Below, in pieces: positions 790-29,600 of a DNA stretch of 32,000 nucleotides. The notes under the pieces are model-generated. The model was given only the letters and a program-made list of their open reading frames with translations, searched no databases and was not told where the DNA came from. Location of the stretch: positions 30,001 through 62,000 of the forward strand of contig APJZ01000002.1 of assembly GCA_000387965.1 (NCBI GenBank). The letters run 5' to 3'. Numbering within the stretch: position 1 is the first letter of the stretch; every line of letters starts with the position of its first letter. This stretch comes from Candidatus Nanobsidianus stetteri. Its GTDB lineage: Archaea; Nanobdellota; Nanobdellia; Nanobdellales; Nanobdellaceae. Both the position numbers and the translations under genes were made by a program.

Positions 790-2067
790 TGTGGAGAACA
801 GCCTCTATATCCATATGAATCTTGTAATTTAGGATCAATTAATCTATATGCTCTGGTTGAATTTAAAGATGGAAAGGCAGAATTTAATTGGAATAAATAT
901 ATTGAAACAATAAAATGGGCGTATAGATTTTTAGATAATGTAATAGATGTAAATAAATATCCAATAAAGGAAATTGAAGAAGCTTCAAAATCTGTAAGAA
1001 GAGTTGGTCTTGGATTTATGGGATTAGCAGATTTATTCTATGCATTGGAAATTCCATATACATCGGAAGAGGCATATAAGTTATTGATGAAAATATCAGA
1101 ATATTTAACATATTATTCAATGTTAGAATCTGTTGAAAGAGCAAAAACAAGGGGTAAATTTGATAGATATGAACAAACAACATATAAAGATGGAGAATTG
1201 CCTGTAGAAGGATATTATCATAGAGAATTATGGACATTAGATTGGGAATATTTGAAAGAACAAATAATAAAGTATGGAATAAGAAATGTTGAAGTTACAT
1301 CAATTGCTCCTACGGGTTCTATATCAATGTTAGCAGATACTTCTTCAGGTATTGAACCACAATATTCTTTAGTATATGAAAAAAGAGTAACTGCTGGTGT
1401 ATATTATTATGTAGATCAAGAATTGGAAAGACAATTAAGGGAAAGAGGATTATATAATAATGATATATTAAAGAAAATATCTGATAATGGAGGAAGTTTA
1501 TTAGGAATAAAAGAGATACCAGACGATTTGAAAGCAATATTCTTAACAGCATTAGATATACCATGGTGGGATCATATAAGAGCACAGGCAGTTGCCCAAA
1601 TATGGATAACTACATCAATATCAAAAACAATTAATATGCCAAATTGGGTTCAACCTGATGATGTATATTATTCATATCTATTAGCATATAAGATGGGATG
1701 TAAAGGAATTACAATATATAGAGATGGATCAAAGTCTTCGCAAGTATATGTAGCCCCTGCTGAATCAAGTAAAGCAAGATTTGCAGATTACTTTAGATTA
1801 ATTAAAGAAGGTAAAATAAATAATAGAACGATTGAAATATTAAATCAATATGGAATAAAGTTGCCAAACTGGTATTATGAATTAAATAACAATGTTGAAT
1901 TACCAAAAGTGAAATTGAATGTAAACATTAATAATACAATAAAAGTTGAAGAAAATGGAAATAATAAAGTTGAAAAATGTCCTGTATGTGGATCTACAAG
2001 ATTAAAACATGAAGCTGGTTGTGTTACATGTATTGATTGTGGATGGTCTGAATGTATAATTGCTTAA
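1..2067 (+). CDS. nrdJ: Class II (adenosylcobalamin-type) ribonucleotide reductase, 3' portion. The frame is open from base 1, so the 5' end lies outside the window. It is interrupted by an intein (1-789); the C-extein is 790-2067.
   Basis: Frame 1 has no stop from nt 1. After the intein end the sequence reads SHN|CGEQPLYPYESCNLGSINL, the RNR active-site loop. Further on come APTGSISMLADTSSGIEP, TSISKTINMP and KGITIYRDGS, then a C-terminal Zn ribbon CPVCGS..CVTCIDCGWSEC. Confidence 0.9.
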   Translation, partial: VKIARIDIDKLENYGLKEVDGIKLDRELGFLLGWLVGNGYVGEKVFFYFNAKTEREVSEYVKELLEKKFGVNVSKYERNNEIWIYVSKEEVVEIFKKLMRKKTSLPEIVFLANSEFVKGFLNGLFSADGYIDKDGAIRLTSSNKDLLKEVQILLTLYGIFSKIYERPYKRKFEYITVNGEKREYETKGYYELIIKNYSRKIFEEKIKLVNYKNEKLLERLNKTKIDDNYVKIVRVEYVGEKMVYDFSVPGFNRYISNGIISHNCGEQPLYPYESCNLGSINLYALVEFKDGKAEFNWNKYIETIKWAYRFLDNVIDVNKYPIKEIEEASKSVRRVGLGFMGLADLFYALEIPYTSEEAYKLLMKISEYLTYYSMLESVERAKTRGKFDRYEQTTYKDGELPVEGYYHRELWTLDWEYLKEQIIKYGIRNVEVTSIAPTGSISMLADTSSGIEPQYSLVYEKRVTAGVYYYVDQELERQLRERGLYNNDILKKISDNGGSLLGIKEIPDDLKAIFLTALDIPWWDHIRAQAVAQIWITTSISKTINMPNWVQPDDVYYSYLLAYKMGCKGITIYRDGSKSSQVYVAPAESSKARFADYFRLIKEGKINNRTIEILNQYGIKLPNWYYELNNNVELPKVKLNVNINNTIKVEENGNNKVEKCPVCGSTRLKHEAGCVTCIDCGWSECIIA

Positions 2068-2089
2068 TTTTTTATAATTTTTTAAAAAG

Positions 2090-2161
2090 TGGACCCGCCG
2101 GGATTTGAACCCGGGATCTCCGGCTTGCAAGGCCGGCATCCTACGACTAGACTACGGGCCC
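2090..2161 (-). tRNA. tRNA-Ala (anticodon UGC)
   Basis: The reverse complement GGGCCCGUAGUCUAGUCGUAGGAUGCCGGCCUUGCAAGCCGGAGAUCCCGGGUUCAAAUCCCGGCGGGUCCA folds as a cloverleaf. The anticodon arm is CCGGC-CUUGCAA-GCCGG and the acceptor stem has a G3:U70 pair. CCA is not encoded. Confidence 0.93.
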
Positions 2162-2261
2162 AATTATTAAATTTCTTAATATTTATTTTTATATAAATTT
2201 GTTTTGGAATAAAGATTGAATAATATTTCATAATTTTACTTAAAATTGAAGAAAGCAATTA

Positions 2262-2345
2262 TGCGGCGGAGGGGATTTGAACCCCTGACGGATCTACTCC
2301 ACTGGGTCTTGAGCCCAGCCCCTTTGTCCGCTCGGGCACCGCCGC
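2262..2345 (-). tRNA. tRNA-Leu (anticodon CAA), class II with a long variable arm
   Basis: The reverse complement is GCGGCGGUGCCCGAGCGGACAAAGGGGCUGGGCUCAAGACCCAGUGGAGUAGAUCCGUCAGGGGUUCAAAUCCCCUCCGCCGCA. The anticodon arm is CUGGG-CUCAAGA-CCCAG, there is a 15-nt variable arm, and the discriminator is A73. Confidence 0.9.
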
Positions 2346-2384
2346 TTAATAATTATATTTAGAAACTTTAATAATTTAAATAAT

Positions 2385-3329
2385 ATGGATAAGGGGGTAT
2401 TTATTATATTAGATGGATTGGGTGATAATTTAATTAAAGAGTTAAGATATAAAACACCTTTGGAAGATGCTAAAAAACCAAATATTGATAAATTAGTAAG
2501 ATATTCAGAATGTGGATTATTATATATAAAAGAAAGAGGACATATTCCAAAATGTATTGAATCAAATTTATCTTTATTAGGTTATGATTTTAAATATGAT
2601 GAATTAATATTTAAAGCATTGGTATATAAAGAATTAAAAGAAAATCAGTTTTTAATTGAAATAGAATCAAAAGAGGATCCAAAAATAGAAGATATATATG
2701 ATATAATAAAATATAAAGATAATAATTATATTCTGATTTTTGATAATTATGATAAGAAAATAATTAAAAAATTAAAGAAATATAAGATAAAAAACAAAAC
2801 AATATATAAAGATTTAAATAAAAAAGATTTATTTGAAAATAAATATAAAGTAAAGGCATTATATTTATCTTCAAGTCTCATTCATTTATCAATTGCAAAA
2901 TATTTGAAAATTGATTATGAAAAACCTTTAGGAACTACTGGGAAAAGTAATGAGAATTTATTTTCATTTTCAGAATACGCAATAGCAAACAGAAATAAAT
3001 ATGATATAATATTTATTCATATAAGGGCTCCAGATATTTTATCTCACTTAAAAAATCCGTTTAAAAAGAAAAAAATAATTGAAGAAATTGATGAATATTT
3101 AATAAAAAGAATAAAGGAATATTTTGATGTAATATTAATTACTGGAGATCATTCCACATCATCAATCAAAGGAAGGCATATTTCAGATCCTGTACCAGTT
3201 ATGATATATTCAAAATATTCAAGATATGGTTTTGTAAAAAATTTCTCCGAAAGAAAATGTATAAAAGGGACTTTGGGAATATTGAATTCAAAAGATATTA
3301 TAAAAATATTTATTGATAAATTAAAATAA
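2385..3329 (+). CDS. Alkaline-phosphatase-superfamily metalloenzyme related to archaeal cofactor-independent phosphoglycerate mutase (ApgM); short and divergent
   Basis: The motif order matches ApgM: N-terminal FIILDGLGDN, then LSLLGYD, HIRAPDILSH (the D..GH site), ITGDHSTSS and HISDPVPVMIY. It is only 314 aa against ~400 aa for typical ApgM. The GSDxAH block is replaced by KCIESNL. Confidence 0.55.
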   Translation: MDKGVFIILDGLGDNLIKELRYKTPLEDAKKPNIDKLVRYSECGLLYIKERGHIPKCIESNLSLLGYDFKYDELIFKALVYKELKENQFLIEIESKEDPKIEDIYDIIKYKDNNYILIFDNYDKKIIKKLKKYKIKNKTIYKDLNKKDLFENKYKVKALYLSSSLIHLSIAKYLKIDYEKPLGTTGKSNENLFSFSEYAIANRNKYDIIFIHIRAPDILSHLKNPFKKKKIIEEIDEYLIKRIKEYFDVILITGDHSTSSIKGRHISDPVPVMIYSKYSRYGFVKNFSERKCIKGTLGILNSKDIIKIFIDKLK

Positions 3330-4606: not shown

Positions 4607-5002
4607 ATGCTAGATAGGTTTTTTGAATTATTTGTAATTGTCTTAGTAATATTTTTTATTACCTTATTATTAATGGAAAAAGTTTCTTATATTTATAATA
4701 TTAATGAAAAATATCAAATTATATATAATCAATTTATGGATGGAAGAGTTTTAATTAAGAAAATTACGGAACAATATACTAATAATATTTGTAATTTAAC
4801 ATCAAATAATTTTGATCCAAGTATAATGAATAATTTGGCAAATTTTCCATATGAAATAATATATGAAAATTTAAGTAATATTAGTCAAGAATACATTTTT
4901 AGTAATGATAATATAACAAACATGCAAAATAATTATATAGAATTTAATAGGGTTTGTTATTATGATGGCTCATTATTTTTAGTTAGAGTATTGGTTCAAT
5001 GA
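4607..5002 (+). CDS. Small protein with an N-terminal hydrophobic helix, Asn/Tyr-rich with N-glycosylation sequons (pilin-like candidate 1)
   Basis: MLDRFFELFVIVLVIFFITLLLM, followed by a polar N/Y/I-rich body carrying the sequons NLT, NLS and NIT. Its stop overlaps the next start (ATGA at 4999-5002). Confidence 0.6.
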   Translation: MLDRFFELFVIVLVIFFITLLLMEKVSYIYNINEKYQIIYNQFMDGRVLIKKITEQYTNNICNLTSNNFDPSIMNNLANFPYEIIYENLSNISQEYIFSNDNITNMQNNYIEFNRVCYYDGSLFLVRVLVQ

Positions 5003-5343
5003 GATCTTTTAGTATATCAATATTTATTGAGTTAGTAGTTGTAATAATTGTTTTATATTTTATTTTAACTTCAACATATTATAGTAATTTTTATATTAGA
5101 GGATATAATAAAGAAGATCTATATGCATCATTAATATCAATAAATTATATGGATTTAAATAATACACAGCAATTAAACAATAGTTTATATCAAATTGTTA
5201 CAAATATTTTACCATATTATTATGTTGAAATAAATGGACAAGTTGCATTTAATAATATAAATTTAAATGAAGCTAAACAAGGAATTGAAACATTTTATAT
5301 TATTAATGGCTCAGTAGATTATGTAGATATATATTGGAAATGA
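4999..5343 (+). CDS. Small protein with a short charged N-terminus plus hydrophobic helix (pilin-like candidate 2)
   Basis: MRS-FSISIFIELVVVIIVLYFILTS, with sequons NNT, NNS and NGS. ATGA overlaps occur at both ends. The first nine nt (ATGAGATCT) are the same as in the next gene. Confidence 0.6.
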   Translation: MRSFSISIFIELVVVIIVLYFILTSTYYSNFYIRGYNKEDLYASLISINYMDLNNTQQLNNSLYQIVTNILPYYYVEINGQVAFNNINLNEAKQGIETFYIINGSVDYVDIYWK

Positions 5344-5618
5344 GATCTCAATTTATTCTATTATATTTAATTTTAATATTATTTATTACATTATACTTTA
5401 TTTCAAGTTTACAAAACAATTTCTATTATCAACCAAATATTGGTAAATATATTGCAGAAGATTTTTATGTTAAATTATTATTATATCCAAATTATTCTTT
5501 CATTATAAATCAAACATATTATAATATCTGTTTAGAAGAAAATATGATATGCTATGATAATGGAACAAATATAATAGTTATAACTCAAAATTCTGAATAT
5601 ATATTAAATAATCCATAG
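5340..5618 (+). CDS. Small protein with a short charged N-terminus plus hydrophobic helix (pilin-like candidate 3)
   Basis: MRS-QFILLYLILILFITLYFISS, with sequons NYS, NQT and NGT. I prefer the ATG at 5340 (ATGA overlap with the upstream stop) over the TTG at 5334 used by the ORF track. The last base of the stop codon TAG is the first base of tRNA-Glu. Confidence 0.55.
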   Translation: MRSQFILLYLILILFITLYFISSLQNNFYYQPNIGKYIAEDFYVKLLLYPNYSFIINQTYYNICLEENMICYDNGTNIIVITQNSEYILNNP

Positions 5619-11998: not shown

Positions 11999-12556
11999 AT
12001 GGCGAAGAGACCCTGGAGAATATTCAAGGAAATTGAAAGACCATATACAAGATTTTCATATAGTAAATCGTATAATAAAATCCCAGGTGCTCCAGTATCA
12101 AAGTTAAGGATGCAGATTATGGGGATAACAAATATACCAAAAGATCAATGGAAATATGTAGGACATTTAATTGCATTACATAATGTTCAAGTATCAGATT
12201 ATTCTTTAGAATCTGTAAGAACAAATATATTAAAATACTTAGAAGGTGAAGTAAAAGAATTCCTATTTATTGTAAGAAAATATCCACATCATGTTGTAAG
12301 AGAACATGCATTGGTATATGGTGCAGGTGCAGATAGAATTTCACAGGGAATGAGGCATGCATTTGGAAGACCATATACAAGAGCTGCGCAAGTATATTAT
12401 AAAGATATTGTTTTATCAATATATTATAATAAACCAGAATTTACAAATAGGATAAGTTTTTATTTAGATGTAGCAAGAAAAAAATTATCAGGAAAATATA
12501 AGAAATATATAGGAGAAAACAAACCAGAAGAAGTCATTTTATCATCTGTTGTCTAG
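11999..12556 (+). CDS. rpl10e: 50S ribosomal protein uL16 (L10e)
   Basis: RPYTRFSYSKSYNKIPGAP, RKYPHHVVREH and GAGADRISQGMRHAFGRP. Confidence 0.9.
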   Translation: MAKRPWRIFKEIERPYTRFSYSKSYNKIPGAPVSKLRMQIMGITNIPKDQWKYVGHLIALHNVQVSDYSLESVRTNILKYLEGEVKEFLFIVRKYPHHVVREHALVYGAGADRISQGMRHAFGRPYTRAAQVYYKDIVLSIYYNKPEFTNRISFYLDVARKKLSGKYKKYIGENKPEEVILSSVV

Positions 12557-13628
12557 ATATTACATATTCTAATAATAATAGTTTTTTCAAATCTTTTATA
12601 TCCTTAGAGATAAATAATCTTCCCCTTCCATATTTTACTATTTCTTTTGCAATTTTTTCTCCTTCATCATTTAATTGTATTCCAATTATAGATATATAAT
12701 AATATTGACTTAATTCCTTAGCTAACCTTAAAGTTCTTTCTACAGGATTTTTTCCTTTTGTTGGTAAAGCATCTGTTATTAATATTATATGCCCATTTTC
12801 GCCTTTATTTAATAAATAATTAAATGCTAAGGCAATATCTGTACTTCCATTTGGTATAATTCTTAATATATCTATTATATCTTTTAATCCTCTAACATTA
12901 TTATATTCTTTAACAATCTTATCATTAAATAATATTATATCTAATAGGTTATTATCCTCCAATATCTTCGATGTTAGTAATATTAAAGCCTTTTTTGCCT
13001 CAAATATTTTTTCTCCAATCATACTTCCAGATACATCTAATAAAATTATATATTTACCACCCTTATTTTCTCTATTAACATTAATAACAAATCTTACTGC
13101 ATCTTTATTCTTTATATATTTTCTTATCGTTTCTTTTATATCAATTTTATTATATTTATCTCCTATACTAAAATATTTTTTGTAAAATTCTTCATCATTT
13201 CCAATATAATATGATGAGTATTTTCCATACTCAAATATTCCTTCAATTTCCTTTTCTATATTTCCTATTAAATATTTAGAATATTCCATTAAAGATTTTT
13301 CAGTCAGTTCTCCCTTTTCATCTATATATCCTTCGCTAATTAATATTTCCTTTATTTTATTTAAAGATTTCCTAAATTCTTTATTAAATCTATAATCTTT
13401 ATCTTCTCTTATCCTTTTTTCATCATATTCTGTTAATTTTGATAATATATCTGAATATTCCTCTTTGTTTTCCATAATTTTATCTATATCAAATATTGGA
13501 TATCCTTCTTTTATCATTTTTTCAATCAATTCATTTATATTTTTCTTAATATCTTTTGAACTATATTTAAAAGATTCTCCAGGTCTATTCATTAAATTTT
13601 CTGAATCAACTCCGAAAGTCCTTTCCAA
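12534..13628 (-). CDS. von Willebrand factor A (VWA) domain protein with a ~190-aa helical N-terminal region
   Basis: The MIDAS motif is in YIILLDVSGSMIGEK, followed later by GSTDIALAF and HIILITDALPTKG. The start overlaps the upstream MoxR gene by 23 nt. Confidence 0.8.
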   Translation of the reverse strand: MERTFGVDSENLMNRPGESFKYSSKDIKKNINELIEKMIKEGYPIFDIDKIMENKEEYSDILSKLTEYDEKRIREDKDYRFNKEFRKSLNKIKEILISEGYIDEKGELTEKSLMEYSKYLIGNIEKEIEGIFEYGKYSSYYIGNDEEFYKKYFSIGDKYNKIDIKETIRKYIKNKDAVRFVINVNRENKGGKYIILLDVSGSMIGEKIFEAKKALILLTSKILEDNNLLDIILFNDKIVKEYNNVRGLKDIIDILRIIPNGSTDIALAFNYLLNKGENGHIILITDALPTKGKNPVERTLRLAKELSQYYYISIIGIQLNDEGEKIAKEIVKYGRGRLFISKDIKDLKKLLLLEYVISRQQMIK

Positions 13629-14646
13629 TTATAAAAGAATTCCATTGATTTTTTACATATTCTTCTTCATTTATTTCCATTTTATATGATGGTTTTAATC
13701 TTATCCTATGTGGTAATATTGATAGTAAAGATTCGAATATATGTTGAATTTCAACATTTTCTTTCTTATCTATTATTGCTAAAGCTTGTGCTTTTTCATA
13801 AATACCAATTGTAGATCTAACAGATGGTTTCCTTTCCAATTTATCATCTTTTCTTAATTTTTGTATAAATTCAATTGTTAATTCCAATAATTTTTCAGGG
13901 AAATTAACATCCAAACTTTTTCCATATTTTAATATAATCTTCTTTTCTTCTTCAATATCTTTTGGATAATCCAAATTTATTATATCAAATCTATCCAATA
14001 ATACATCAGATATTTTTTCAGTTCCATAATAACTTTCAGGATTCATTGTAGCAATAAATATTATATCCAAGGGTATTTGAAATTCATATGTTCCAATTGT
14101 TATTTTCTTTTCTTCTAATAATTCTAATAAACTATTTTGAACCTTTGGAGGTGCTCTATTTATTTCATCAAAAAATAATACACCATGGTGTGCTCTAAAT
14201 ATTTTTCCAGGTATAAAAGATTCTAAAGAATGTATTCCATATTTTAATGCTTTTGAAGGATCAATATCTCCAATTAAATCTTCTACAGATAGATCATAAG
14301 AACCCTGTATTCTAATAAATCTATCTTCTCCTCTTATTTTTATAAAGGGACCCTCCCTCCATTTTTTTCTATATTCTTCAGAGACAAAAGGGAATTCTTC
14401 ATATGCCCACAAAGGAATTCCTTCTGGAAAATCAATTTCAGGTAATAGTTTTGCTATATTTTTTGCTAGGGTTGTTTTTCCAGTACCAGGAGGACCTATT
14501 ATTAATATATTCCTTCCAGAAATTAATGAAGATAATATTTGTCTCTTTGCATTTTCTTGTCCAATTATAGAATCAAATGGATCTTTTCCCTCCTTAATAT
14601 AATTATTAATTATTATATCCCTTATCTGTTCTCTTATTTTGATCAT
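13606..14646 (-). CDS. MoxR-family AAA+ ATPase
   Basis: Walker A is ILIIGPPGTGKTTLAKNIA. Walker B and sensor are GVLFFDEINRAPPKVQNSLLELLEEKKITIG and FIATMNPES. Confidence 0.85.
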   Translation of the reverse strand: MIKIREQIRDIIINNYIKEGKDPFDSIIGQENAKRQILSSLISGRNILIIGPPGTGKTTLAKNIAKLLPEIDFPEGIPLWAYEEFPFVSEEYRKKWREGPFIKIRGEDRFIRIQGSYDLSVEDLIGDIDPSKALKYGIHSLESFIPGKIFRAHHGVLFFDEINRAPPKVQNSLLELLEEKKITIGTYEFQIPLDIIFIATMNPESYYGTEKISDVLLDRFDIINLDYPKDIEEEKKIILKYGKSLDVNFPEKLLELTIEFIQKLRKDDKLERKPSVRSTIGIYEKAQALAIIDKKENVEIQHIFESLLSILPHRIRLKPSYKMEINEEEYVKNQWNSFIIGKDFRS

Positions 14647-15554: not shown

Positions 15555-15820
15555 TTTAAACTTAATTTATAAAATTTTGAATGGCCAAAATGAATTATCA
15601 GATCAAATCCATATTTATCTAAATATATTGGCATATCGCATCCACCAAAATCCGATCCAAACCAAATATATATTTCAATATCTTTATATTTTTCCTTTAT
15701 TTTATCATATATTTCTTTTGAATATGGTTTTAGTCCATCAGGAAATTGTAATAATATTTTTTTATATTTCTTTTTATCCAATGTTTCAAATATCCTATCT
15801 AATTCAAAATCTATTTCCAT
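15551..15820 (-). CDS. dph2: Diphthamide synthase Dph2, N-terminal domain only (89 aa; split gene or remnant)
   Basis: EIDFELDRIFETLDKKKYKKILLQFPDGLKPYSKEI...IWFGSDFGGCDMPIYLDKYGFDLIIHFGHS matches the start of archaeal Dph2, including the first cluster-ligand Cys. The ORF stops right after the GHS block. Full-length proteins are ~330-340 aa. Confidence 0.7.
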   Translation of the reverse strand: MEIDFELDRIFETLDKKKYKKILLQFPDGLKPYSKEIYDKIKEKYKDIEIYIWFGSDFGGCDMPIYLDKYGFDLIIHFGHSKFYKLSLK

Positions 15821-16566
15821 TTAAATATTTTTAATATATTATCTATAAAGCTATTCTTAATCTTTAATTCCTTTCCAGTTATTTTTTCTGCAATTTTTAT
15901 TATATCTCTAGAAGCTATAGAATTTATATTATAATCTATTAAAGGTATACCTTTATTCATTGAAATTTGTACATTTTCATCATAATGTATTATTCCTATT
16001 ATTTTCTTTTTAAAAAATTTTTCAGCGTTTACGTAATCTATATCCTTTTTTATCTTATTTAAAACAATTCCAAAAGTTTTTATATCTAAATTATCTAATA
16101 CTTTTGTAACTCTATAAGAATCAAACATTGCAGATTTCTCATAGTTTGTTATAATTATAACTTCTTCAGAAGCTTTTAAAGCCTCTAAAGCTTCTTTACC
16201 AATTCCAGCAGCAGAATCTATAATAATATAATCAAAATCATCATATATTTTCATTATTCCATTATGTAATTTCTCCGTGGAAATATATATTAAATCTTTT
16301 ATATCCAAACTTCCTGGAATTATATAAAAATTATCTTCATATTCTTTTATACAATCATTTATTTCAATTTCTCCCCTTAAAAATTTATGTATATTGTTAT
16401 TTTCATTACCCAACCCTAGATTTATTGATACATTTGGTGTAGTTAGATTAAAATCAATTAATAATGTTTTAAAATTTAATAATGAGAGAGCCCTTGATAA
16501 ATTTATAGAAAAGAAAGTTTTTCCTACTCCACCTTTCCCAGAAGATATTGTATATACTTTTGCCAT
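15811..16566 (-). CDS. MinD/ParA-type P-loop ATPase (archaeal MinD-like)
   Basis: It has the deviant Walker A SGKGGVGKTFFSINLS and IIIDSAAGIGKEA. The size (251 aa) and layout are typical. Confidence 0.85.
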   Translation of the reverse strand: MAKVYTISSGKGGVGKTFFSINLSRALSLLNFKTLLIDFNLTTPNVSINLGLGNENNNIHKFLRGEIEINDCIKEYEDNFYIIPGSLDIKDLIYISTEKLHNGIMKIYDDFDYIIIDSAAGIGKEALEALKASEEVIIITNYEKSAMFDSYRVTKVLDNLDIKTFGIVLNKIKKDIDYVNAEKFFKKKIIGIIHYDENVQISMNKGIPLIDYNINSIASRDIIKIAEKITGKELKIKNSFIDNILKIFKWK

Positions 16567-19227: not shown

Positions 19228-22173
19228 GGAATATATAGTCTCAGGAACCCGCCCGGTGGATGCCTGGGCTCGGAAGCCGAAGAAGGGCGTGGCAAGCTGC
19301 GAAAAGCTGGAGGGAGGTGCATGCAACCGTTGATCTCCAGATTCCCGAATGGGATATCCTGCCAAAAGGCATCCCGTAAGGGAGGGGAACGCGGGGAAGG
19401 GAAACATCTTAGTACCCGCAGGAATAAAAAACAATTTGTGATTTCCTGAGTAGGGGCGACCGAAAGGGAAGGAGCCCAAACTGAATCCTCTAAAGTAATT
19501 TAGAGGAGATGTGGGGTAAAGGAACGGGAGCTTCCCGTTATTATATCCTCAGAACTCCGGTGAAAGTCCGGGGCCATAGAGGGTGACAGCCCCGTATGGG
19601 GATATAATAGTGGGATTTCCCGTTTCCGGAGTACCGGCGGTTGGATTTCCGTCGGGAATTTGGGGGAAACTAGCCCCCAAGGCTAAATACTCTCCGAGTC
19701 CGATAGCGTATCAGTAGGGCGACCGAAAGGTGAAAAGAACCCTTGGCAGGGGGTGAAAAGAGCCTGAAACCGGGCGGGGATTGTCTGGTAGGGCTAGTTA
19801 AGCACCTTATCTGGGAAAATCTGGTGACAGATGAGTACCAGATAGGGTGCTAGCTAGTTCTACCGTGAGTTTTGAAGAACTTGCGGGGGAGTATACCCGA
19901 GTGGCGAGGTTAAGGTTTATACCGAAGCCATAGGGAAACCGAAAGCCCGTAACCTGGTTTCCAGGTGAGGGGCACCGTCCCATAAGGGCGGTTTAGTCAC
20001 TCGGGTATGACCGGAAGCCGGGCGATCTACCCCGGGGCAGGGCGAAGCGGGGTTTCCCGTGGAGGCCCGAAGAGGTGGGGCTTATCTCTCTCATGACCTC
20101 GGGGTAGAGGTGAAAAGCCACTCGGGCCCGGTTATAGCCGGTCCCCGCCGAAACTGACCCCAGCCAGGTCTCGGGTTGGGATCCCTATGGTGTAGAGATA
20201 CGGATTCTGTACGGGTTTCCGTACGGAGTCCAACTCCGAAGCCATAGGGTCCGTAGCCCGGGAAACGGGGATTGCGGGAAAGCCGCAATTCCGAGACGGG
20301 AACAACCGAGACCGAGGTTAAGGCCCCAAAGTGCTGGCTGAACGATTTTGAAGGAGTCTGTCCCCTAAGACATCGGGGATGTGGGCCTAATAGTGGCTAT
20401 CATCTAAGGAGTGTGTAACAACTCACCCGACGAGGGGATAGGCTCCGAAAACGGACGGGTCTAAGCCAGCCGCCGAGACCTCGGTCCGCTGGCATTGCCA
20501 GCGTGAGGTAGGCGGGCGTCCCGATGGCCTAGAAGGGTTCCTGAAAGGGAGCCTGGAGCCGTCGGGAATGAAGATCCCCGCGGTAGTAAGAATCAGACGG
20601 GTGAGAATCCCGTCGGCCGAAGGGGGAAAGGTTTCCCAGGCAATGAAAATCAGCCTGGGGTTAGTCGATCCTAATTCAGGCTCCGAGTGGAGTCTGGAGA
20701 AAGGGAAAGGGGTTAATATTCCCCTACCGCTCCGATAGATGCGGTAACGCAACATCCTTTCCCGACCCGGAAGGCTAGGCATACACGGGGGTGGGGTAAA
20801 ACTCACTTACCGTGCTAAGGGGGATAGGACCGGGGAGTGCCGTCATGGCGAGAACCGGTCTAAACCCTAATGGGCCCGAAAGGGTTATGCCGAGGCCTTC
20901 CGGCAATGAAAAGGGAAAGGATGCGATTCGGAGCGATCGTACCGAAATCCAGAATAGGTCCCCTGGGTGAGCAGCCTAAGGCCGTGGGGGTCAAGCCGGT
21001 CCAGGGAACTTGGCAAATTGGTCCCGTAACTTCGGGAGAAGGGATGCCTGCGGTGTAGACCGCAGGTCGCAGTGACAAGGGCGGGCGGACTGTTTATCAA
21101 AAACATAGCTCCCAGCAAGCCCGAAAGGGTTTGTACTGGGGGTGACGTCTGCTCAGCACCGGTATCTGAATCCCCCGTTCAAGGGGGGTAAGGACCGGTA
21201 AACGGCGGGGGTAACTCTGACCCTCTTAAGGTAGCGTAATGCCTTGCCAGTTAAATGCTGGCTCTGCGAACGACGTAACTAGCCCGCCACTGTCCCGGGC
21301 CGGCGCCCCCTGAAAAGCTATCCTGGTGAGAAGGCCAGGGACTTCCGATGGGTAAAAAAGACCCCGTGAAGCTTAACCGCAGCCTGTTGTTGCTCTGAAG
21401 AACCTGGTGTGTAGGGTAGCGGGGAGCAATGAATTCCTGCCGCTAGGTAGGAAGGATGCGACGATGAAACACCCGCCTCCAGGTTCTTCAGGGCTAACCC
21501 GAAAGGGGACAGCGGCAGGTGGGCGGTTTGGCTGGGGCGGCACCTTGCCGAAAAGGTATCGGCAGGGTCCATAAGGTCAGCTCAGGCGGGTCAGGAATCC
21601 GCCGTAGAGGACAAGGCCAAAAGCTGGCCTGACTGTGCCCTGACCATCAAGGGGCACAGGGGGGAAACCCGGGCCTAGCGAACCCCGTACTCTCACTAGT
21701 GGGGGTACGGGCTGGCGGAAAAGCTACTCCGGGGGTAACAGCGCCGTCGCGGGCGAGAGCCCCCATTGACCCCGCGGTTTGCGACATCGATGTCGTCTCT
21801 CCCCATCCTGGTGGTGCAGAAGCCGCCAAGGGTGGGGGTGTCCACCCATTAAAGGGGATCGTGAGATGGGTTCAGAACGCCGCGAGGCAGTTCGGTTATA
21901 ACTGTCGGAAGTGCTGGCTGCCTGAGGGGAAGGTCCGCCTAGTACGAAAGGAACGGCGGGCCGGGGCCTCTGGTATACGGGCTGTCCGAGAAGGGCATGC
22001 CCGGTAGCTACGCCCTAGGGGATAAGCCCTGAAAGCATCTAAGGGTGAAGCCCCCCTCAAAAATAGGCAGCCGTTAAGGGGTCGGATAAAAGATCCGACT
22101 CAGAGCGGCGGTGTAAGCTCCGAAAAGGAGTTCAGCCGACCGCTTGAAGTTCCCGTGAGACTATATATTCCCT
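19228..22173 (+). rRNA. rrl: 23S (large-subunit) rRNA, not linked to the 16S gene
   Basis: GGUGGAUGCCUGGGCUCGGAAGCCGAAGAAGGGCGUGGCAAGCUGCGAAAAGC lies near the 5' end. Internal landmarks include GACCCUCUUAAGGUAGCGUAAUGCCUUGCC, AAGACCCCGUGAAGCUU and GGGAUAACAG-like/GUUCAGAACG regions. The terminal helix pairs 19226-19249 with 22149-22174. Confidence 0.97.
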
Positions 22174-22187
22174 CGACCCCAAAAATT

Positions 22188-23681
22188 TTATTCAATATTA
22201 TAATATCTCAAAATATTTTCTTTATTATAATAATACATTTGTATAATTTTACTGAATGTTTGAAAATCTGAAATATTTAATTCAGATAATCTATATAATA
22301 ATTTTACTCTTCTAATATATTCTTCATACAATTCTTTGTATCTTATTCCATAATCATTTTCAATTAATCTAAATAAATATTTTTTAGGATTTTCTAAGTA
22401 TTCTCTTTTAAAAGGATTCCATTTATATGCAATATTAAATCTATTATATTTTATAATTTCATTAATTTCTTTAATTCTCCTCAAATTTGTTCCAAGAAAA
22501 TTATCATGTTGCATTATTACGACAATGTTTAATAATTCAATTAGTGATGGAGATAAATTTATTGGTGGTGTTGTTAATCTACTTATTAGAGCTTTTGTAC
22601 TTTCAGCATGCATTGTTGATAAAGATGAATGACCCGATGCCATTCCCTGAAACATTACATATGCCTCCTCTCCTCTTACTTCTCCTACAATTACATAATC
22701 TGGCCTTTGTCTAAAAGACATCCTCAATAATTCAAACATATCAATTTCTCTATTTTTATCAGAAGAATATTTTACTACAGAAGGAATCCAGTTTGGATGA
22801 TATAACCTTATTTCTCTTGTATCTTCAATCGAAACAATTCTAGCATTTGGTGGTATAAACATGGATATTGCATTTAGCATTGTTGTTTTTCCAGAAGCTG
22901 TACCTCCAATTATAATTATATTTTTTCTAAATTCTACTGCTAACCATAAATATGCAAATATTTCCGGAGTTGCACTTCCCAATCTTATTAATTCTATTGG
23001 AGTCCATGGAATTTCCCTAAACTTTCTTATTGTAAATGTTGGACCATGTGTAGTAATTTCTTGCGAATATGTTGCATTTACTCTTGATCCATCTGGTAAT
23101 GTTGCATCTAAAATTGGTTCTGCATAAGATATATGTTTCCCAGCCCTCAATGCAAATTTTTCAATTAAATCTCTAATTTCTTTATCATTTAAGATTATAT
23201 TTGTCCTTAAATTTCCGAAATATCTATGAACAACAAATATCGGATAACCTGGACCTGAACATTCAATATCCTCAATCAATGGATCTCTTAATAAAGAATC
23301 TACCTTATTATACCCATAAAGATCCCTAAAAATATAATAAAATATTTTTTCATAAGAGGATTGTCCCAATTGTATTCCTAAATCATTTAGTACAAAATCG
23401 TATAATCTTTGTAAATAACTTATAGCATCATTTAAATTATTAATTTCGGATAATTTAATATATAATAATTTTTCAATATAAAAAATTATATTTTTATATA
23501 TTTTTTCTTCATTTTCAGTTAATTTTGGCTCTATTATTTCGTAAACAAGATCATATGTACTTCTATCAAAATATATATGTGCATAGGAAAAAGGTTCCAC
23601 AATTGGGTAAGTTATATTTGTTTCAAATTTATTTTTAGGTACATTTATTTTTATATCATTAATAAATTTAATGTTTATCAT
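22188..23681 (-). CDS. Type IV filament (archaellum/pilus) assembly ATPase, FlaI(ArlI)/PilB/VirB11 superfamily
   Basis: Walker A is IIIGGTASGKTTMLNA, the Asp box is ARIVSIEDTREI, Walker B is RQRPDYVIVGEVRGEEA and the His box is ASGHSSLSTMHAES. The length of 497 aa is typical of archaeal FlaI-like ATPases. Confidence 0.88.
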   Translation of the reverse strand: MINIKFINDIKINVPKNKFETNITYPIVEPFSYAHIYFDRSTYDLVYEIIEPKLTENEEKIYKNIIFYIEKLLYIKLSEINNLNDAISYLQRLYDFVLNDLGIQLGQSSYEKIFYYIFRDLYGYNKVDSLLRDPLIEDIECSGPGYPIFVVHRYFGNLRTNIILNDKEIRDLIEKFALRAGKHISYAEPILDATLPDGSRVNATYSQEITTHGPTFTIRKFREIPWTPIELIRLGSATPEIFAYLWLAVEFRKNIIIIGGTASGKTTMLNAISMFIPPNARIVSIEDTREIRLYHPNWIPSVVKYSSDKNREIDMFELLRMSFRQRPDYVIVGEVRGEEAYVMFQGMASGHSSLSTMHAESTKALISRLTTPPINLSPSLIELLNIVVIMQHDNFLGTNLRRIKEINEIIKYNRFNIAYKWNPFKREYLENPKKYLFRLIENDYGIRYKELYEEYIRRVKLLYRLSELNISDFQTFSKIIQMYYYNKENILRYYNIE

Positions 23682-23689
23682 GATAAAGA

Positions 23690-23713
23690 TTAATATACTC
23701 CAGAATATATAAA
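23690..23713. promoter_or_regulatory. Pair of opposed TATA-like boxes in the 41-bp divergent spacer (TTAATATA on + at 23690-23697; TTTATATA on - at 23706-23713)
   Basis: Each box is centred ~28-30 nt upstream of the start codon it faces (23723 and 23681). Confidence 0.35.
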
Positions 23714-23722
23714 CTATTCATA

Positions 23723-25102
23723 ATGATTAATAAGAATGTTCTAATAAACCTGGAAAGGGATATAGAGGAAATAGAAAGATATATTGATAAATTAAAAAAT
23801 ATTTTAAAGGAAATAAAGAGAAAGGAGGAAATGAAGAAATATTTTCAAAAATTATATTTGAATGGATATTTTGATGAAAAAGAATATAAAAGAAGGTTAA
23901 CAATAATTGAAAAGAAAATAAAATATTTAGAGAAATCTAAATACTTAATATTATATGATTTAATTAATTTAATAAATAATAGTCAAAAAATAATAGAATT
24001 TTTAAAGAATATAGAAGAAAAAAGCGAAGAAGAGAATAAAAATATACAATATTATCAAATGAAGATAAATGATACAATAAATTATATTAGTAAAGTTTAT
24101 CCAGAAATATTTAAGAAAGAAGAAATAAAGATTGGTAAGAGATTTATTGAAGCATCAAACATATTATTTAGAAAGAAGGAAGAAAAAAAGAAGAAAATAA
24201 AATTTAAATTAAAGTTAACTGAAGAACGTAAAATAAATTATTATCAAGAGATTAAAAATATATTAATAAGATTTTCATATAAAATATTTGGGGGAATATC
24301 TAGAAGAATCTTAAATAGTAGTCCAAAATTATATTTCTATTTAAAATACTCATTAAAAGAAGCATATTATAATATAGAACCTGATGAATTATTATCTATT
24401 ATGTTTTTATTTTCATCAATTATTATTCTTACTTCAACATTTATCTCATTGTACCTTCTAAATATTTTCTATTTAGTTTATGGTTTAGTAGGATTTTTAT
24501 CTGTAGTAGGATTACTTGTCTTATATTTCAATTATAAAAAACAGAGCATAGTAGAAGATATAAATAGAAATTTACCATTTGCTATAATACATATGGCATC
24601 ATTAGCAGATGCTGGGATAGAAGTAAAGTATATAATAAAAATAATAAGTGAAACTGAGGAATATGGATATTTATCAAAAGAATTTAAAAAAATATATGAT
24701 AAAATAAACTTGGGAGAAGGATTGGTGGAATCATTAAGATCCGTTGCGGATGATACATTATCAAAAGATCTAAAAGATTTTTTAGAGGAATTAATATTAA
24801 CAATTACCTCTGGAAGAAAGATATCCGAATTCCTAATATTATACTCTCAGCAGGAAATGATTAGATATAATACATTTTTAAAGAAAGTTAATCAGGTAAT
24901 GAAGACATTTTCAGATTTATATGTTGGTATGGTATTAACAATTCCAATGATAATAATATCGGTTGGAGTAATGTTATTATCAATATTACAACAAACATAC
25001 AATATAAATATTCAAGGATTATTAGAGATAATTACATATATAGGATTACCTGCTATTAATATTGGCTTTATAATATTGTTTGATAAATTAACAAAAGAAT
25101 GA
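23723..25102 (+). CDS. Type IV filament platform protein, first half (single T2SS-F/FlaJ-type domain), preceded by a ~190-aa K/E-rich coiled-coil extension
   Basis: Residues ~200-459 read LKEAYYNIEPDELLSIMFLFSSIIIL (TMs) then LPFAIIHMASLADAGIE...LSKEFKKIYDKINLGEGLVESLRSVA...DFLEELILTITSGRKISEFL plus terminal TMs, which is FlaJ/TadB-like. The N-terminus is heptad-like (EEIERYIDKLKNILKEIKRKEE...). Confidence 0.75.
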   Translation: MINKNVLINLERDIEEIERYIDKLKNILKEIKRKEEMKKYFQKLYLNGYFDEKEYKRRLTIIEKKIKYLEKSKYLILYDLINLINNSQKIIEFLKNIEEKSEEENKNIQYYQMKINDTINYISKVYPEIFKKEEIKIGKRFIEASNILFRKKEEKKKKIKFKLKLTEERKINYYQEIKNILIRFSYKIFGGISRRILNSSPKLYFYLKYSLKEAYYNIEPDELLSIMFLFSSIIILTSTFISLYLLNIFYLVYGLVGFLSVVGLLVLYFNYKKQSIVEDINRNLPFAIIHMASLADAGIEVKYIIKIISETEEYGYLSKEFKKIYDKINLGEGLVESLRSVADDTLSKDLKDFLEELILTITSGRKISEFLILYSQQEMIRYNTFLKKVNQVMKTFSDLYVGMVLTIPMIIISVGVMLLSILQQTYNINIQGLLEIITYIGLPAINIGFIILFDKLTKE

Positions 25103-25923
25103 AGGAAGAAATAATTGATATATTTATTATTATAGTTCTTATATTTTTATTTTATTTTGTATTTAATTTTAGTATTTTAAATTCAATTGTAACTGGGATA
25201 ATAGTTGGTATATTTCCATATTTAATCTATCAAACAATTATTAATAATATAGAAAAAGAAAAAGAAGAACAATTTATTAGATTTTCAATTGATTTAATTG
25301 GATTATTAAAATCGGGATTATCATTACCAATTGCACTAAAACAATTGGAAAAAAATGATTATGGGAGAATTAATGAACTAGTAAAAAATCTATCTTCAAG
25401 AATTGATTGGGGTGTTAGTATTGAAGATTCATTTACAGAATTTGCAGAGGAAAGTAATAGTAGAATGATTAAGAGGACTATACAATCTTTAATAGATATA
25501 TACAAGGAAGGAGGAAATCTTGAACAAGGATTGGAAGCAATTATAAATAGTATAATGGAAATTAGAAAAATAAAAGAAGATAAAAAGGCAGCAATACATG
25601 AAAACATAATTCATTCTTATATTGTATTTGCTTTTTTCTTAGGTATAGTATTTACATTTCAAATATTTTTATTACCATTTTTACAAATTTCATTACCTGG
25701 ACAAGCTTCAAATGTTAATTTTAATTTTATTAATAATTTAATGTATTATATGTCAATAATTCAAGCAGTTTTTGCTGGATTATCAATGGGAAAGATGTAT
25801 GATGATTCATATAAAGCTGGTGCAAAGTATGTAGCAATATTTCTATTTATGGTTATAATATTATTTAATGTTATAATACCAATTGTTCCAAAAGGTATGT
25901 TTTTAATAAATATAAATATGTAA
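25099..25923 (+). CDS. Type IV filament platform protein, second half (single T2SS-F/FlaJ-type domain)
   Basis: N-terminal TMs, then FIRFSIDLIGLLKSGLSLPIALKQLEKNDYG..LSSRIDWGVSIEDSFTEFAEES..MIKRTIQSLIDIYKEGGNL, then three TMs. There is an ATGA overlap with the previous gene. Confidence 0.75.
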   Translation: MKEEIIDIFIIIVLIFLFYFVFNFSILNSIVTGIIVGIFPYLIYQTIINNIEKEKEEQFIRFSIDLIGLLKSGLSLPIALKQLEKNDYGRINELVKNLSSRIDWGVSIEDSFTEFAEESNSRMIKRTIQSLIDIYKEGGNLEQGLEAIINSIMEIRKIKEDKKAAIHENIIHSYIVFAFFLGIVFTFQIFLLPFLQISLPGQASNVNFNFINNLMYYMSIIQAVFAGLSMGKMYDDSYKAGAKYVAIFLFMVIILFNVIIPIVPKGMFLININM

Positions 25924-26359: not shown

Positions 26360-26857
26360 TTATAAATAATATTTTGAAAGATAATCTAGAATATTTTTTA
26401 TGCCAAAAACATACTTTTCTTTCATAGAAACTATTTCATATATAAAATTTAGCATATCTTTGTAATCTGTAAATATATAAGGTTCTTTATTTAAATATTT
26501 TGATATATAGTATTCTGAAACATTATATGCAATATTATAAAAATATTTGTTCTTCTTTTGTATTAAATATTTATATTTTTCCTCTTTTTTATAATTATAT
26601 AATAAAAAAGATAGTAAAACACCCTCTATTGGTAATATTAATATTGAGTTTTCCTTTATTTCAATCTCTTCAATTTTTTTATATATATTTAAATTAATTT
26701 TAAACCCCATATTGAATTTTTTATCTATCTTATTTATTATATCTAAAACAAAATCTTTTGTATTTGATTCTAGTGCAATTATATTTATATTAGAATTTCT
26801 TTTGAATTTTTTTGAATTTCTAATTTCCCTTTTTGTTAATCTTTCATATATGTTCAT
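26360..26857 (-). CDS. Hypothetical protein (165 aa) between the ArcTGT and uS19 genes
   Basis: The ORF has a 4-nt overlap with the TGT stop. It is K/N/Y-rich and has no motif I can recognise. Confidence 0.45.
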   Translation of the reverse strand: MNIYERLTKREIRNSKKFKRNSNINIIALESNTKDFVLDIINKIDKKFNMGFKINLNIYKKIEEIEIKENSILILPIEGVLLSFLLYNYKKEEKYKYLIQKKNKYFYNIAYNVSEYYISKYLNKEPYIFTDYKDMLNFIYEIVSMKEKYVFGIKNILDYLSKYYL

Positions 26858-28062
26858 TTTACATTTTTAAATGAGTTAAATGGATATGCATAATCAAATA
26901 TATCTTCAATATCCTTTTTATCAACCCTCTCATTTATTCTTTCCAATGCTCTTTTAACATCTACTCTAATTTCATTTAATTCTCCCCCATAAAATATTCC
27001 AGATCTTTTTCTTATTGGTTCTAATGATTTTAAATAATTATAATATTTCTCTAAAATTAATTTTGTTGCTTTATATAATGAATAATGAGTATGTGCCTTA
27101 ATTAATATTAAATCTGTTAAATATTCATTTTTTATAGCATCTTTTGTAATTTCAATTTCCTTAATTAAATTATATAAATTATGTTCTGCTAATATTTTTA
27201 TTAATTCTTTATTATTATAATCTTTTATTTCTTCTATATGATATATATTATTTTTAGTTTCAATGTAAAAGTTCTTTATTTCATCATATCTAAATGTACC
27301 ATATGGTGTTAATATTCTCTTATCTTTAGCAAACAATATATATGAGGCAGAATCGAAAATATCAAAACCTAAATATATTGATAGTGGAATTATCAATGTA
27401 TGACCCATTCCAAATAAATGAATAGGTTTATTAAATGGTAATAAAATTTTTGGTTCGATTGCCAATTCTAATAATTTATAAAAATTGTATTTTATCATAT
27501 ATGGAACAATTGTACCAATTGCAAATATATCTACATCTAAATTTTTTACATATTCAGCAGCTTTTTTCCTTAAATCAATATAAATCCCACCCTGTATTGC
27601 TCCATTAATTAATCTATCCCCCTTTAATTTTATCCCTTCTTTTATCCTTTCAATTGTAATATTTAATTCATTTTCAGCTTCTTCTTTAGATTTATCAATA
27701 TCTGTTGGTATATCTAAGACATTTAATATGTCAGAATTTATTCTTATTTGATATTCAATAATTTCTCTATTATTTATTTCTAAATCTTTTTTATAATGCA
27801 ACATTTGATATGATCCCGAATCAGTTTCAATAATTCCATCAAAATTTAAGAATTTATGTATATCACCATCAAATTTTCTTCTATATAATATATATGCATT
27901 TGTAATTATTGCATTAATTCTATATTTTTTTATTGTTTCTATTGGTAAAATATTCTTATAGGGATTTATAACTGGTAAAAGTAATGGTGTTTCTAATTTT
28001 TTATTTTTATATCTAATAATTCCTATTCTTCCAGCTCCATCTCTATATTTTATTTCGAACAT
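26854..28062 (-). CDS. tgtA: Archaeosine tRNA-guanine transglycosylase, catalytic (TIM-barrel) portion only; no PUA/C-terminal domains
   Basis: MFEIKYRDGAGRIGII..LETPLLLPVINP, IIETDSGSYQ, NGAIQGG, LFGMGHT, FDIFDSASY and LAEHNLY. It is 402 aa against ~580-650 aa for full-length ArcTGT. Confidence 0.85.
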   Translation of the reverse strand: MFEIKYRDGAGRIGIIRYKNKKLETPLLLPVINPYKNILPIETIKKYRINAIITNAYILYRRKFDGDIHKFLNFDGIIETDSGSYQMLHYKKDLEINNREIIEYQIRINSDILNVLDIPTDIDKSKEEAENELNITIERIKEGIKLKGDRLINGAIQGGIYIDLRKKAAEYVKNLDVDIFAIGTIVPYMIKYNFYKLLELAIEPKILLPFNKPIHLFGMGHTLIIPLSIYLGFDIFDSASYILFAKDKRILTPYGTFRYDEIKNFYIETKNNIYHIEEIKDYNNKELIKILAEHNLYNLIKEIEITKDAIKNEYLTDLILIKAHTHYSLYKATKLILEKYYNYLKSLEPIRKRSGIFYGGELNEIRVDVKRALERINERVDKKDIEDIFDYAYPFNSFKNVK

Positions 28063-28090: not shown

Positions 28091-28107
28091 GGGGATTGCA
28101 GCGGAAT
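28091..28107 (-). repeat. 3' half of the 16S processing helix (pairs with 29646-29665)
   Basis: On the RNA, AUUCCGCUGCAAU-CCCC (3' flank) pairs with GGGG-AUA-AUUGCAGCGGAAU (5' flank). That is 13 + 4 bp with a 3-nt bulge. Confidence 0.75.

Positions 28108-29600
<1,493 letters not shown>

Follow-up and report, generated by a model that had tools for sequence, protein, structure and literature searches.

A conserved locus for a putative type IV pilus motor with a two-gene platform in Candidatus Nanobsidianus stetteri

The three genes and their two-gene platform

The stretch of DNA analysed here, called the window below, spans 32,000 nucleotides of Candidatus Nanobsidianus stetteri (contig APJZ01000002.1, positions 30,001 to 62,000), has a G+C content of ~23% and belongs to a genome of 594 kb in 7 contigs that is an estimated ~90% complete; the labels C1, C2, C3 and C5 denote contigs of this same genome (G000). 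Between its 23S and 16S rRNA genes, and where an initial annotation had placed them, lie three open reading frames (ORFs): a PilB/afGspE-type secretion ATPase on the minus strand (22188-23681, 497 residues) and, across a divergent intergenic region of 41 bp (23682-23722), two platform genes on the plus strand, a TadC-like one of 459 residues (23723-25102, ORF 1) and a TadB-like one of 274 residues (25099-25923, ORF 2). The locus is, in our view, a genuine and conserved pilus motor of a known kind that looks functional.

The ATPase carries a Pfam T2SSE match (E = 1.1e-33) whose core covers residues 184-371 (nt 22569-23132, minus strand) and includes Walker A (GGTASGKTT, residues 259-267, nt 22881-22907, minus strand), the Asp box (282-290), Walker B (327-337) and the His box (350-358), which bears out the earlier view of a FlaI/PilB-like ATPase with all secretion-ATPase boxes. 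Its score on the NCBIfam FlaI equivalog model (365.7 bits) lies under the cut-off of 550, and the solved structure that it matches best is afGspE of Archaeoglobus fulgidus (PDB 2OAP, 381.5 bits), with Sulfolobus FlaI (4II7) at 244.5 bits; an ArlI paralog in this genome (C1:126548-128221) has the reverse pattern, 441 bits for FlaI versus 291 for afGspE. Altogether, the genome encodes five full-length T2SSE-family ATPases, and the closest paralog of the one in the window is that at C2:82422-83969 (48% identity). Among the best 80 loci found with an alignment of the ATPase, which are the ones considered here, all are from DPANN archaea, including Nanopusillus, Nanobdella aerobiophila (75% identity) and metagenome-assembled genomes (MAGs) labelled Woesearchaeota, Pacearchaeota and Aenigmatarchaeota. 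We would not look for it among the archaellum motors but assign it, probably, to the afGspE-like clade 2 ATPases of the 'euryarchaeal' PilA type (arCOG01817).

Each platform ORF holds a single T2SSF domain above the Pfam cut-off. That of ORF 1 covers residues 288-413 (nt 24584-24961, plus strand; E = 9e-15) and is flanked, by hydropathy, by transmembrane helices 1-2 (~220-272) and 3-4 (~396-458), and that of ORF 2 covers residues 64-185 (nt 25288-25653; E = 1.1e-17). On the NCBIfam ArlJ model of 555 positions ORF 1 aligns to 23-233 and ORF 2 to 279-539, and because of these alignments the two can be taken as the N and C halves of one FlaJ/PilC-type platform, an arrangement for which the likeness to TadB and TadC drawn in the initial annotation is apt (TadC corresponding to the N half and TadB to the C half). 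In an AlphaFold2 model of the N-half, built on 12 homologues with a mean pLDDT of 78, the T2SSF part matches the cytoplasmic domains of OutF, EpsF and PilC in Foldseek (TM-score 0.66-0.77 on the target); a phmmer search of PDB sequences with the C-half returned no match. The genes join in a 4-base ATGA overlap (25099-25102), through which the C-half is translationally coupled to the N-half.

A single-base error at precisely this overlap could mimic a split, so that the two ORFs might be one gene broken by a sequencing frameshift, or else a recent pseudogene. Comparison makes the chance of this close to nil. The 459-residue protein is covered end to end in 12 other, independent genomes of the genus at 52-95% identity (in one of them the orthologue is itself split over two contigs), and all 11 congener loci that were fetched have the divergent ATPase, a gene for 459-461 residues and one for 272-274 residues with the 4-base overlap, although two of the 11 also allow a longer upstream start for the N-half gene. 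The arrangement is also kept in three further genera of the family (loci L036-L040, L043); in ~50 of the 80 named DPANN loci the order is ATPase, N-half and C-half on one strand, and in dozens of DPANN loci the halves are separate genes, at times with other genes inserted between. Moreover, each half starts with its own membrane helices, and Nei-Gojobori ratios of nonsynonymous to synonymous substitution (dN/dS) between congeners are ~0.1 (0.09-0.16 for N-half residues 1-219 and 0.08-0.20 for the rest). Thus, the platform truly consists of two genes.

Being split is nonetheless not what sets this platform apart, as had been supposed. Every non-archaellum platform typed in the genome is split, in three N-half/C-half pairs, and the DPANN relatives compared have split platforms too; a further, divergent protein of 669 residues adjoins an ATPase of 747 residues. 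Paralogous halves match like with like, N-halves with N-halves and C-halves with C-halves, at 26-29% identity, and the split is therefore older than the paralogs. A split platform is the rule in these archaea and a described feature of archaeal pili (see below), which removes the main reason for which the locus had seemed unusual.

The N-terminal extension and the shared promoter region

The first 200 residues of the N-half are 40% charged with a net charge of +18, and the initial annotation had seen in them a long, heptad-like coiled coil foreign to FlaJ-type proteins. The extension is real and does not align to FlaJ N-termini; what does not stand is the single long coiled coil. In the AlphaFold2 model it instead consists of a helical-bundle domain (residues 1-125, nt 23723-24097, plus strand) with helices at 2-46, 52-95 and 102-125 (pLDDT 75-91), a lysine-rich disordered linker (residues 126-172, nt 24098-24238, plus strand; pLDDT 33-38 over 132-171) and conserved pre-membrane helices (residues 173-219, nt 24239-24379, plus strand; modelled as 173-199 and 201-213, with F189 and S193 invariant in the alignment). 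These are followed by two membrane helices, the T2SSF bundle and two more membrane helices. As the extension is strongly positive and precedes two membrane helices that lead into the cytoplasmic T2SSF domain, we take it to be cytoplasmic. Its dN/dS (0.09-0.16) equals that of the membrane core, and by this measure it is under purifying selection.

The conserved core of the bundle comprises approximately residues 1-95 and contains the motif Y-x-x-G-x-[IFL]-x(3-4)-Y; it recurs widely. By a hidden Markov model (HMM) built on roughly the first 95 residues, 96 of 176 proteins (the matches of two protein searches plus the ATPases and platform genes of this genome) carry the domain, in every case N-terminally, the two named domain-bearing members being from Candidatus Woesearchaeota MAGs. 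In a scan of 1.84 billion representative proteins there were 1176 matches, and many of the best are proteins of 400-1018 residues with a C-terminal T2SSF part. Of 201 genomes sampled evenly from the phylum, 60 show a match at E <= 0.001 and ~28 one below 1e-10, the latter nearly all in ORFs of ~570-920 residues; the Nanoarchaeum-equitans-like genome of that sample has none. Variable is rather the linker, which measures ~45 residues here and up to several hundred in Woesearchaeota-type relatives (proteins of 565-1018 residues). Pfam assigns no family to 17 copies of the domain, just scattered coiled-coil noise, and Foldseek relates the N part of the model to generic three-helix bundles only, for example syntaxin Habc and TBCA. 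A SHOCT-type identity for the tyrosine-glycine motif was considered and dropped, there being no such Pfam match.

N-halves elsewhere differ at this end. Those of Aenigmatarchaeota-labelled loci are short (284-292 residues), and many Woesearchaeota- and Pacearchaeota-labelled ones (400-480 residues; loci L062-L131) have a different, analogous N-terminal helical segment, approximately S-x-E-E-K-x-M-I-x-S-Q-I-x-x-L-K followed by a low-complexity linker, which the domain HMM does not recognise. The idea that the N-domain had moved between ATPase and platform, giving a long ATPase with a short N-half as in the Aenigmatarchaeota-labelled loci, is contradicted by the coexistence of a long ATPase and a long N-half in three loci (L049, L050, L088); no ATPase was matched by the domain HMM.

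As to function, the N-domain on its flexible, lysine-rich tether may serve platform oligomerisation or may hold or regulate the ATPase. A further, if rather doubtful, reading would be that domain and variable tether form an undescribed, class-wide cytoplasmic module of DPANN platforms that docks, oligomerises or gates the ATPase in place of GspL, PilM, TadZ or ArlX. If true, it would do in minimal cells what these proteins do elsewhere. The recurrent domain is a small, testable lead on how pilus motors are organised without the usual accessory proteins.

The 41 bp between the ATPase and the N-half hold two back-to-back TATA-like boxes, identified by eye and by conservation: TTAATATA (23690-23697, plus strand) and TTTATATA (23706-23713, in minus-strand reading). 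Both stand upstream of their own ATG, at a distance of ~28-30 nt, and both persist across 12 species of the genus whose proteins are as little as 52% identical. The spacer thus resembles, and probably is, a bidirectional promoter giving leaderless or near-leaderless transcripts. A sigma-70 promoter and terminator scan yielded fewer promoter-like matches than shuffled sequence and is unsuited to archaea.

That the ATPase diverges from the platform genes, as the initial annotation pointed out, is correct, but as a distinctive trait it dissolves into a local rearrangement, since in Woesearchaeota- and Pacearchaeota-type relatives the three genes are co-directional and stand behind pilin genes. 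All ten Woesearchaeota-type loci found via the N-domain run pilins, small membrane protein (~100 residues), ATPase, N-half and C-half, with 3-5 upstream pilin genes whose products have N-termini such as KRGVSPLIATVLLIAFAVALGA; the pilins of these orthologous operons are of the PilA type and 150-180 residues long. Their ATPase is 43-50% identical to that in the window, their N-half has 565-910 residues, and their C-half (~300 residues) mostly adjoins it, other genes intervening in L049 and L050. From this common layout it follows that the window holds a reduced and rearranged version, with the ATPase inverted and the pilins gone. The ancestral DPANN operon would have read pilins, ATPase, N-half and C-half. 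The divergent orientation, in which an ATPase unit and a platform unit now share the 41-bp bidirectional promoter region, would have come about when the ATPase gene was inverted in the lineage of the Nanopusillaceae and Nanobdella.

Other type IV systems, pilins and the proposed motor

Could the module nevertheless be part of an archaellum, that is, FlaI with a split FlaJ? FlaI and ArlJ are the best NCBIfam names for its products, the N-half orthologue of Nanobdella aerobiophila (P0011; also L057; 50% identity) carries the public label 'archaeal flagellar protein FlaJ', and the arlH-arlI operon of this genome has no adjoining arlJ. Yet all scores fall far under the equivalog cut-offs (ATPase 365.7, cut-off 550; platform halves 87.8 and 47.5, cut-offs 550 and 400), the ATPase is nearer to afGspE than to FlaI, and the parts of an archaellum are found elsewhere. 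The ATPase at C1:126548-128221 scores 654.6 bits on NCBIfam FlaI, above 550, and is directly preceded by a gene for ArlH (221.4 bits, cut-off 215); a fused two-domain ArlJ-like gene of 550 residues lies at C3:58829-60391 (271.7 bits, model positions 25-550), and archaellin genes occupy C3:671-3844. Neither arlH, arlF/G nor archaellin genes are present in the window, in agreement with the initial annotation, whose description of a stand-alone pilus-type module rather than an arl/fla operon holds. To our minds, an archaellar role is thus very improbable, and we read the locus as a pilus motor and no archaellum part, despite the 'FlaJ' label in the cultured Nanobdella aerobiophila, which is, on these scores, misleading.

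The other pilus-type genes of the genome can in part be matched up. For the second split platform the N half (C2:81592-82425, 277 residues) adjoins its ATPase, and the presumed partner, a C half of 263 residues, lies 67 kb away (C2:149638-150429); in the third, an N half of 288 residues (C5:47074-47940) is divergent from a C half of 426 residues (C5:45800-47080). The genes of the C5 pair overlap by 7 bases at their starts, and this C-half has a C-terminal extension of ~100 residues. Another ATPase, of 594 residues (C1:79593-81377), has no adjoining platform; in a locus from another order of the class (L045, G021:C11) its orthologue lies immediately upstream of pilin-like genes and of genes orthologous to the C5 pair, which suggests, from gene neighbourhood, that the 594-residue ATPase works with the C5 platform pair. 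In a sister genus (g2; L037, G013:C21:1-6500), a single ATPase of the window's type has a divergent C-half/N-half pair on one side and, downstream, the 290-residue N-half of the other system, and this genome, 76% complete, shows only one ATPase of the C/D type. This may be either the ancestral state before an ATPase duplication or a secondary merger. The resulting parts list, in which ATPases are paired to platforms, comprises three pilus systems with a split platform, a fourth and divergent pilus-type locus, and one archaellum. It should be useful for the cultivable Nanopusillus and Nanobdella co-cultures, since type IV pili head the candidate genes for host finding and attachment in nanoarchaea.

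Our preferred explanation, to which we give a probability of roughly 80%, reads the module as a motor that assembles an archaeal type IV pilus other than the archaellum, one of the 'euryarchaeal' PilA type, with an arCOG01817 ATPase and two TadC-family genes of arCOG01808. The ATPase would form a cytoplasmic hexamer and dock on the T2SSF domains of a hetero-oligomeric platform in which the 459-residue N-half and the 274-residue C-half together would make up one FlaJ/PilC-type protein; ATP-driven movements of this platform would then lift processed pilins from the membrane into the growing filament. Pilins as well as a class III signal peptidase would have to be supplied from elsewhere in the genome. 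For the former, there is a Pilin_N protein at C5:36178-36678 (26.6 bits, cut-off 25.2), homologous to an operon pilin of a Woesearchaeota-type locus (BLAST E = 2.5e-11), and a second, weaker pilin-like candidate at C2:162875-163342. Together with a Peptidase_A24-like gene at C3:17003-17308 these are candidate partners of the module in trans.

Several points weigh against this explanation. No pilin or peptidase gene adjoins the module, the Peptidase_A24-like gene scores just under its cut-off (25.1 bits against 26.5), the three orthologous proteins were undetected in the proteome of a Nanopusillus acidilobi co-culture (~200 proteins), and our clade placement draws on the closest protein of solved structure and on the arCOG labels that orthologues carry in the literature rather than on a reference tree. 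The missing pilins and the proteome would also fit a real motor without an adhesive pilus, be it a short pseudopilus for secreting proteins, displaying them at the surface or taking up DNA, or a remnant that shares its platform halves with the ATPase at C2:82422-83969. Such modular sharing is suggested by the L037 ATPase, flanked as it is by platform genes of both systems, and would be in keeping with Makarova, Koonin and Albers 2016 (PMC4858521), where ATPase/TadC modules are argued to draw on pilin sets in trans. Against it, Woesearchaeota-type orthologous operons have several PilA-type pilins directly upstream, a homologous pilin is kept in this genome and, as regards a remnant, all parts of the module are under strong purifying selection. 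We therefore consider this scenario improbable, though less so than the archaellar one, and stay with the PilA-type motor. That its filament might attach to the host, as proposed in the initial annotation, is a hypothesis with a precedent: Jarett et al. 2018 (PMC6142677), who reported four FlaJ/TadC homologues, had put forward the view that nanoarchaea use type IV pili for sensing and gripping their hosts.

Very short pilins occur in this genome as well. Two pilin-like ORFs of 62 and 72 residues at C1:21223-21701 (N-termini MKKS/DAINFIILL and MVKKG/QSLPINTIIIL) resemble Flp/Epd-type pilins without a globular domain, and a longer relative with a QSLPxNTII N-terminus (C1:78537-78938) adjoins a different ATPase, the one of 594 residues. 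The operons orthologous to the module have PilA-type pilins and not such short Flp/Epd pilins.

Neighbouring genes and comparison with known systems

On the strand of the ATPase and 5.6 to 11 kb from the module lie three further genes that were absent from the initial annotation: a MinD/ParA-type ATPase (15811-16566, minus; Pfam AAA_31, ParA and CbiA), a MoxR-type AAA ATPase (13606-14646, minus; Pfam) and a vWA-domain protein (12534-13628, minus; Pfam). Makarova 2016 (PMC4858521) linked all three families to type IV pili and expected a stand-alone FleN/MinD ATPase (arCOG00589), a family that this work and Denise 2019 tie to clade 1/2 pili and to TadZ; the MinD orthologue of N. acidilobi (Nps_03280, arCOG00589) has an equivalent position, and the 15811-16566 gene is such a MinD/FleN/TadZ-like ATPase in the neighbourhood of a split platform. 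It may be a TadZ/FleN-like pilus accessory, and the vWA and MoxR proteins are possible regulators with a weak link to the module. As the genome is compact, proximity is weak evidence for any of them.

Around the module, the 23S rRNA gene (19232-22167, plus) and the 16S rRNA gene (28107-29599, minus) are unlinked and on opposite strands, and between them lie, besides the pilus genes, rpS19, one hypothetical gene and a gene for tRNA-guanine transglycosylase (TGT; 26854-28062, minus, 402 residues). Judged by its orthologue Nps_03235 (= Nst1_232), whose neighbours are alike, the latter is one piece of a split archaeosine TGT; the conserved split TGT gene is listed by Wurch et al. 2016 (NEQ 124-305, Nst 096-232, Nps 1135-3235). 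Further away, at 4607-5618 (plus), lies a translationally coupled trio of small ORFs (131, 114 and 94 residues), in each of which a charged and very short N-terminus is followed by a single hydrophobic helix and a tail rich in Asn and Tyr; the second and third start with MRS and MEMRS, and a start of MRS followed by hydrophobic residues recurs in several other ORFs of the genome. They may be atypical pilin-like or surface proteins.

How does the module compare with known systems? With the archaellum (ArlI, ArlJ, ArlH) it shares the ATPase and platform superfamilies and the general mechanism of filament assembly. It differs in its scores under the equivalog cut-offs, in its split platform, in the lack of ArlH, ArlF/G and archaellin genes nearby and in that the genome has a separate, complete archaellum gene set.

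A further comparison is with the bacterial Tad pilus and the Epd pilus of Methanococcus maripaludis ('system 1'). For Epd-like and Tad systems, Denise, Abby and Rocha 2019 (PMC6668835) described two one-domain platform genes that arose by fission, with TadC corresponding to the N half and TadB to the C half and with TadZ related to arCOG00589, and Sivabalasarma and Albers 2026 (PMC13705601) list system 1 and subsystems 4A/4B as having a pair of platform genes. In common with these, the window has two contiguous platform genes with one T2SSF domain each, a TadC-like N-half and a TadB-like C-half, and a MinD/TadZ-like arCOG00589 ATPase nearby. In Epd and Tad, though, the platform genes precede the ATPase on one strand, whereas here they are divergent from it; their pilins are short and Flp-like, whereas those of the DPANN orthologous operons are longer and of the PilA type; the window locus has no dedicated peptidase; and in the literature compared this N-terminal domain is reported for neither TadC nor EpdJ.

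The clade 2 pili of Makarova 2016 (PMC4858521), for whose ATPase afGspE is the exemplar, have several parts in common with the module. Two TadC components were noted there for clade 1 systems and two tadC-like genes for many of the euryarchaeal systems of clade 2, a clade that takes in a few Nanoarchaea. Alike are the arCOG01817-type ATPase, the two arCOG01808 tadC-like genes, PilA/Pilin_N-type pilins that may be encoded in trans and the stand-alone arCOG00589 FleN/MinD ATPase; unlike are the ATPase inverted relative to the platform genes, a locus without pilins and the helical domain of the N-half, which is undescribed in that work. Sivabalasarma and Albers 2026 (PMC13705601) have DPANN ATPase and platform genes adjacent and pilins scattered.

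Orthologous to the module are the loci of Nanopusillus acidilobi and Nst1. Supplementary Data 1 of Wurch et al. 2016 lists Nps_03250 and Nps_03255 as 'Flp pilus assembly protein TadC' (arCOG01808) and Nps_03260 as 'VirB11-related ATPase' (arCOG01817), the N-half being Nps_03255/Nst1_228, the C-half Nps_03250/Nst1_229 and the ATPase Nps_03260/Nst1_227. The gene order given there (Nps_03235 TGT, 03240, 03245 S19, 03250, 03255, 03260, 03270 ProRS, 03280 MinD) is that of the window (ProRS, ATPase, TadC, TadC, S19, hypothetical, TGT). With the same three genes and neighbours these loci show no difference of substance, and the table passes over the N-terminal extension and the orientation without comment. 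The literature already has a split platform, a stand-alone context and the hypothesis of attachment, and the orthologues are already annotated. What we add to these known systems is modest: platform halves of this genome matched to their ATPases, the reconstruction of an ancestral operon with its lineage-specific inversion, and the recognition that an unnamed cytoplasmic domain recurs at the N-terminus of platform N-halves across the class.

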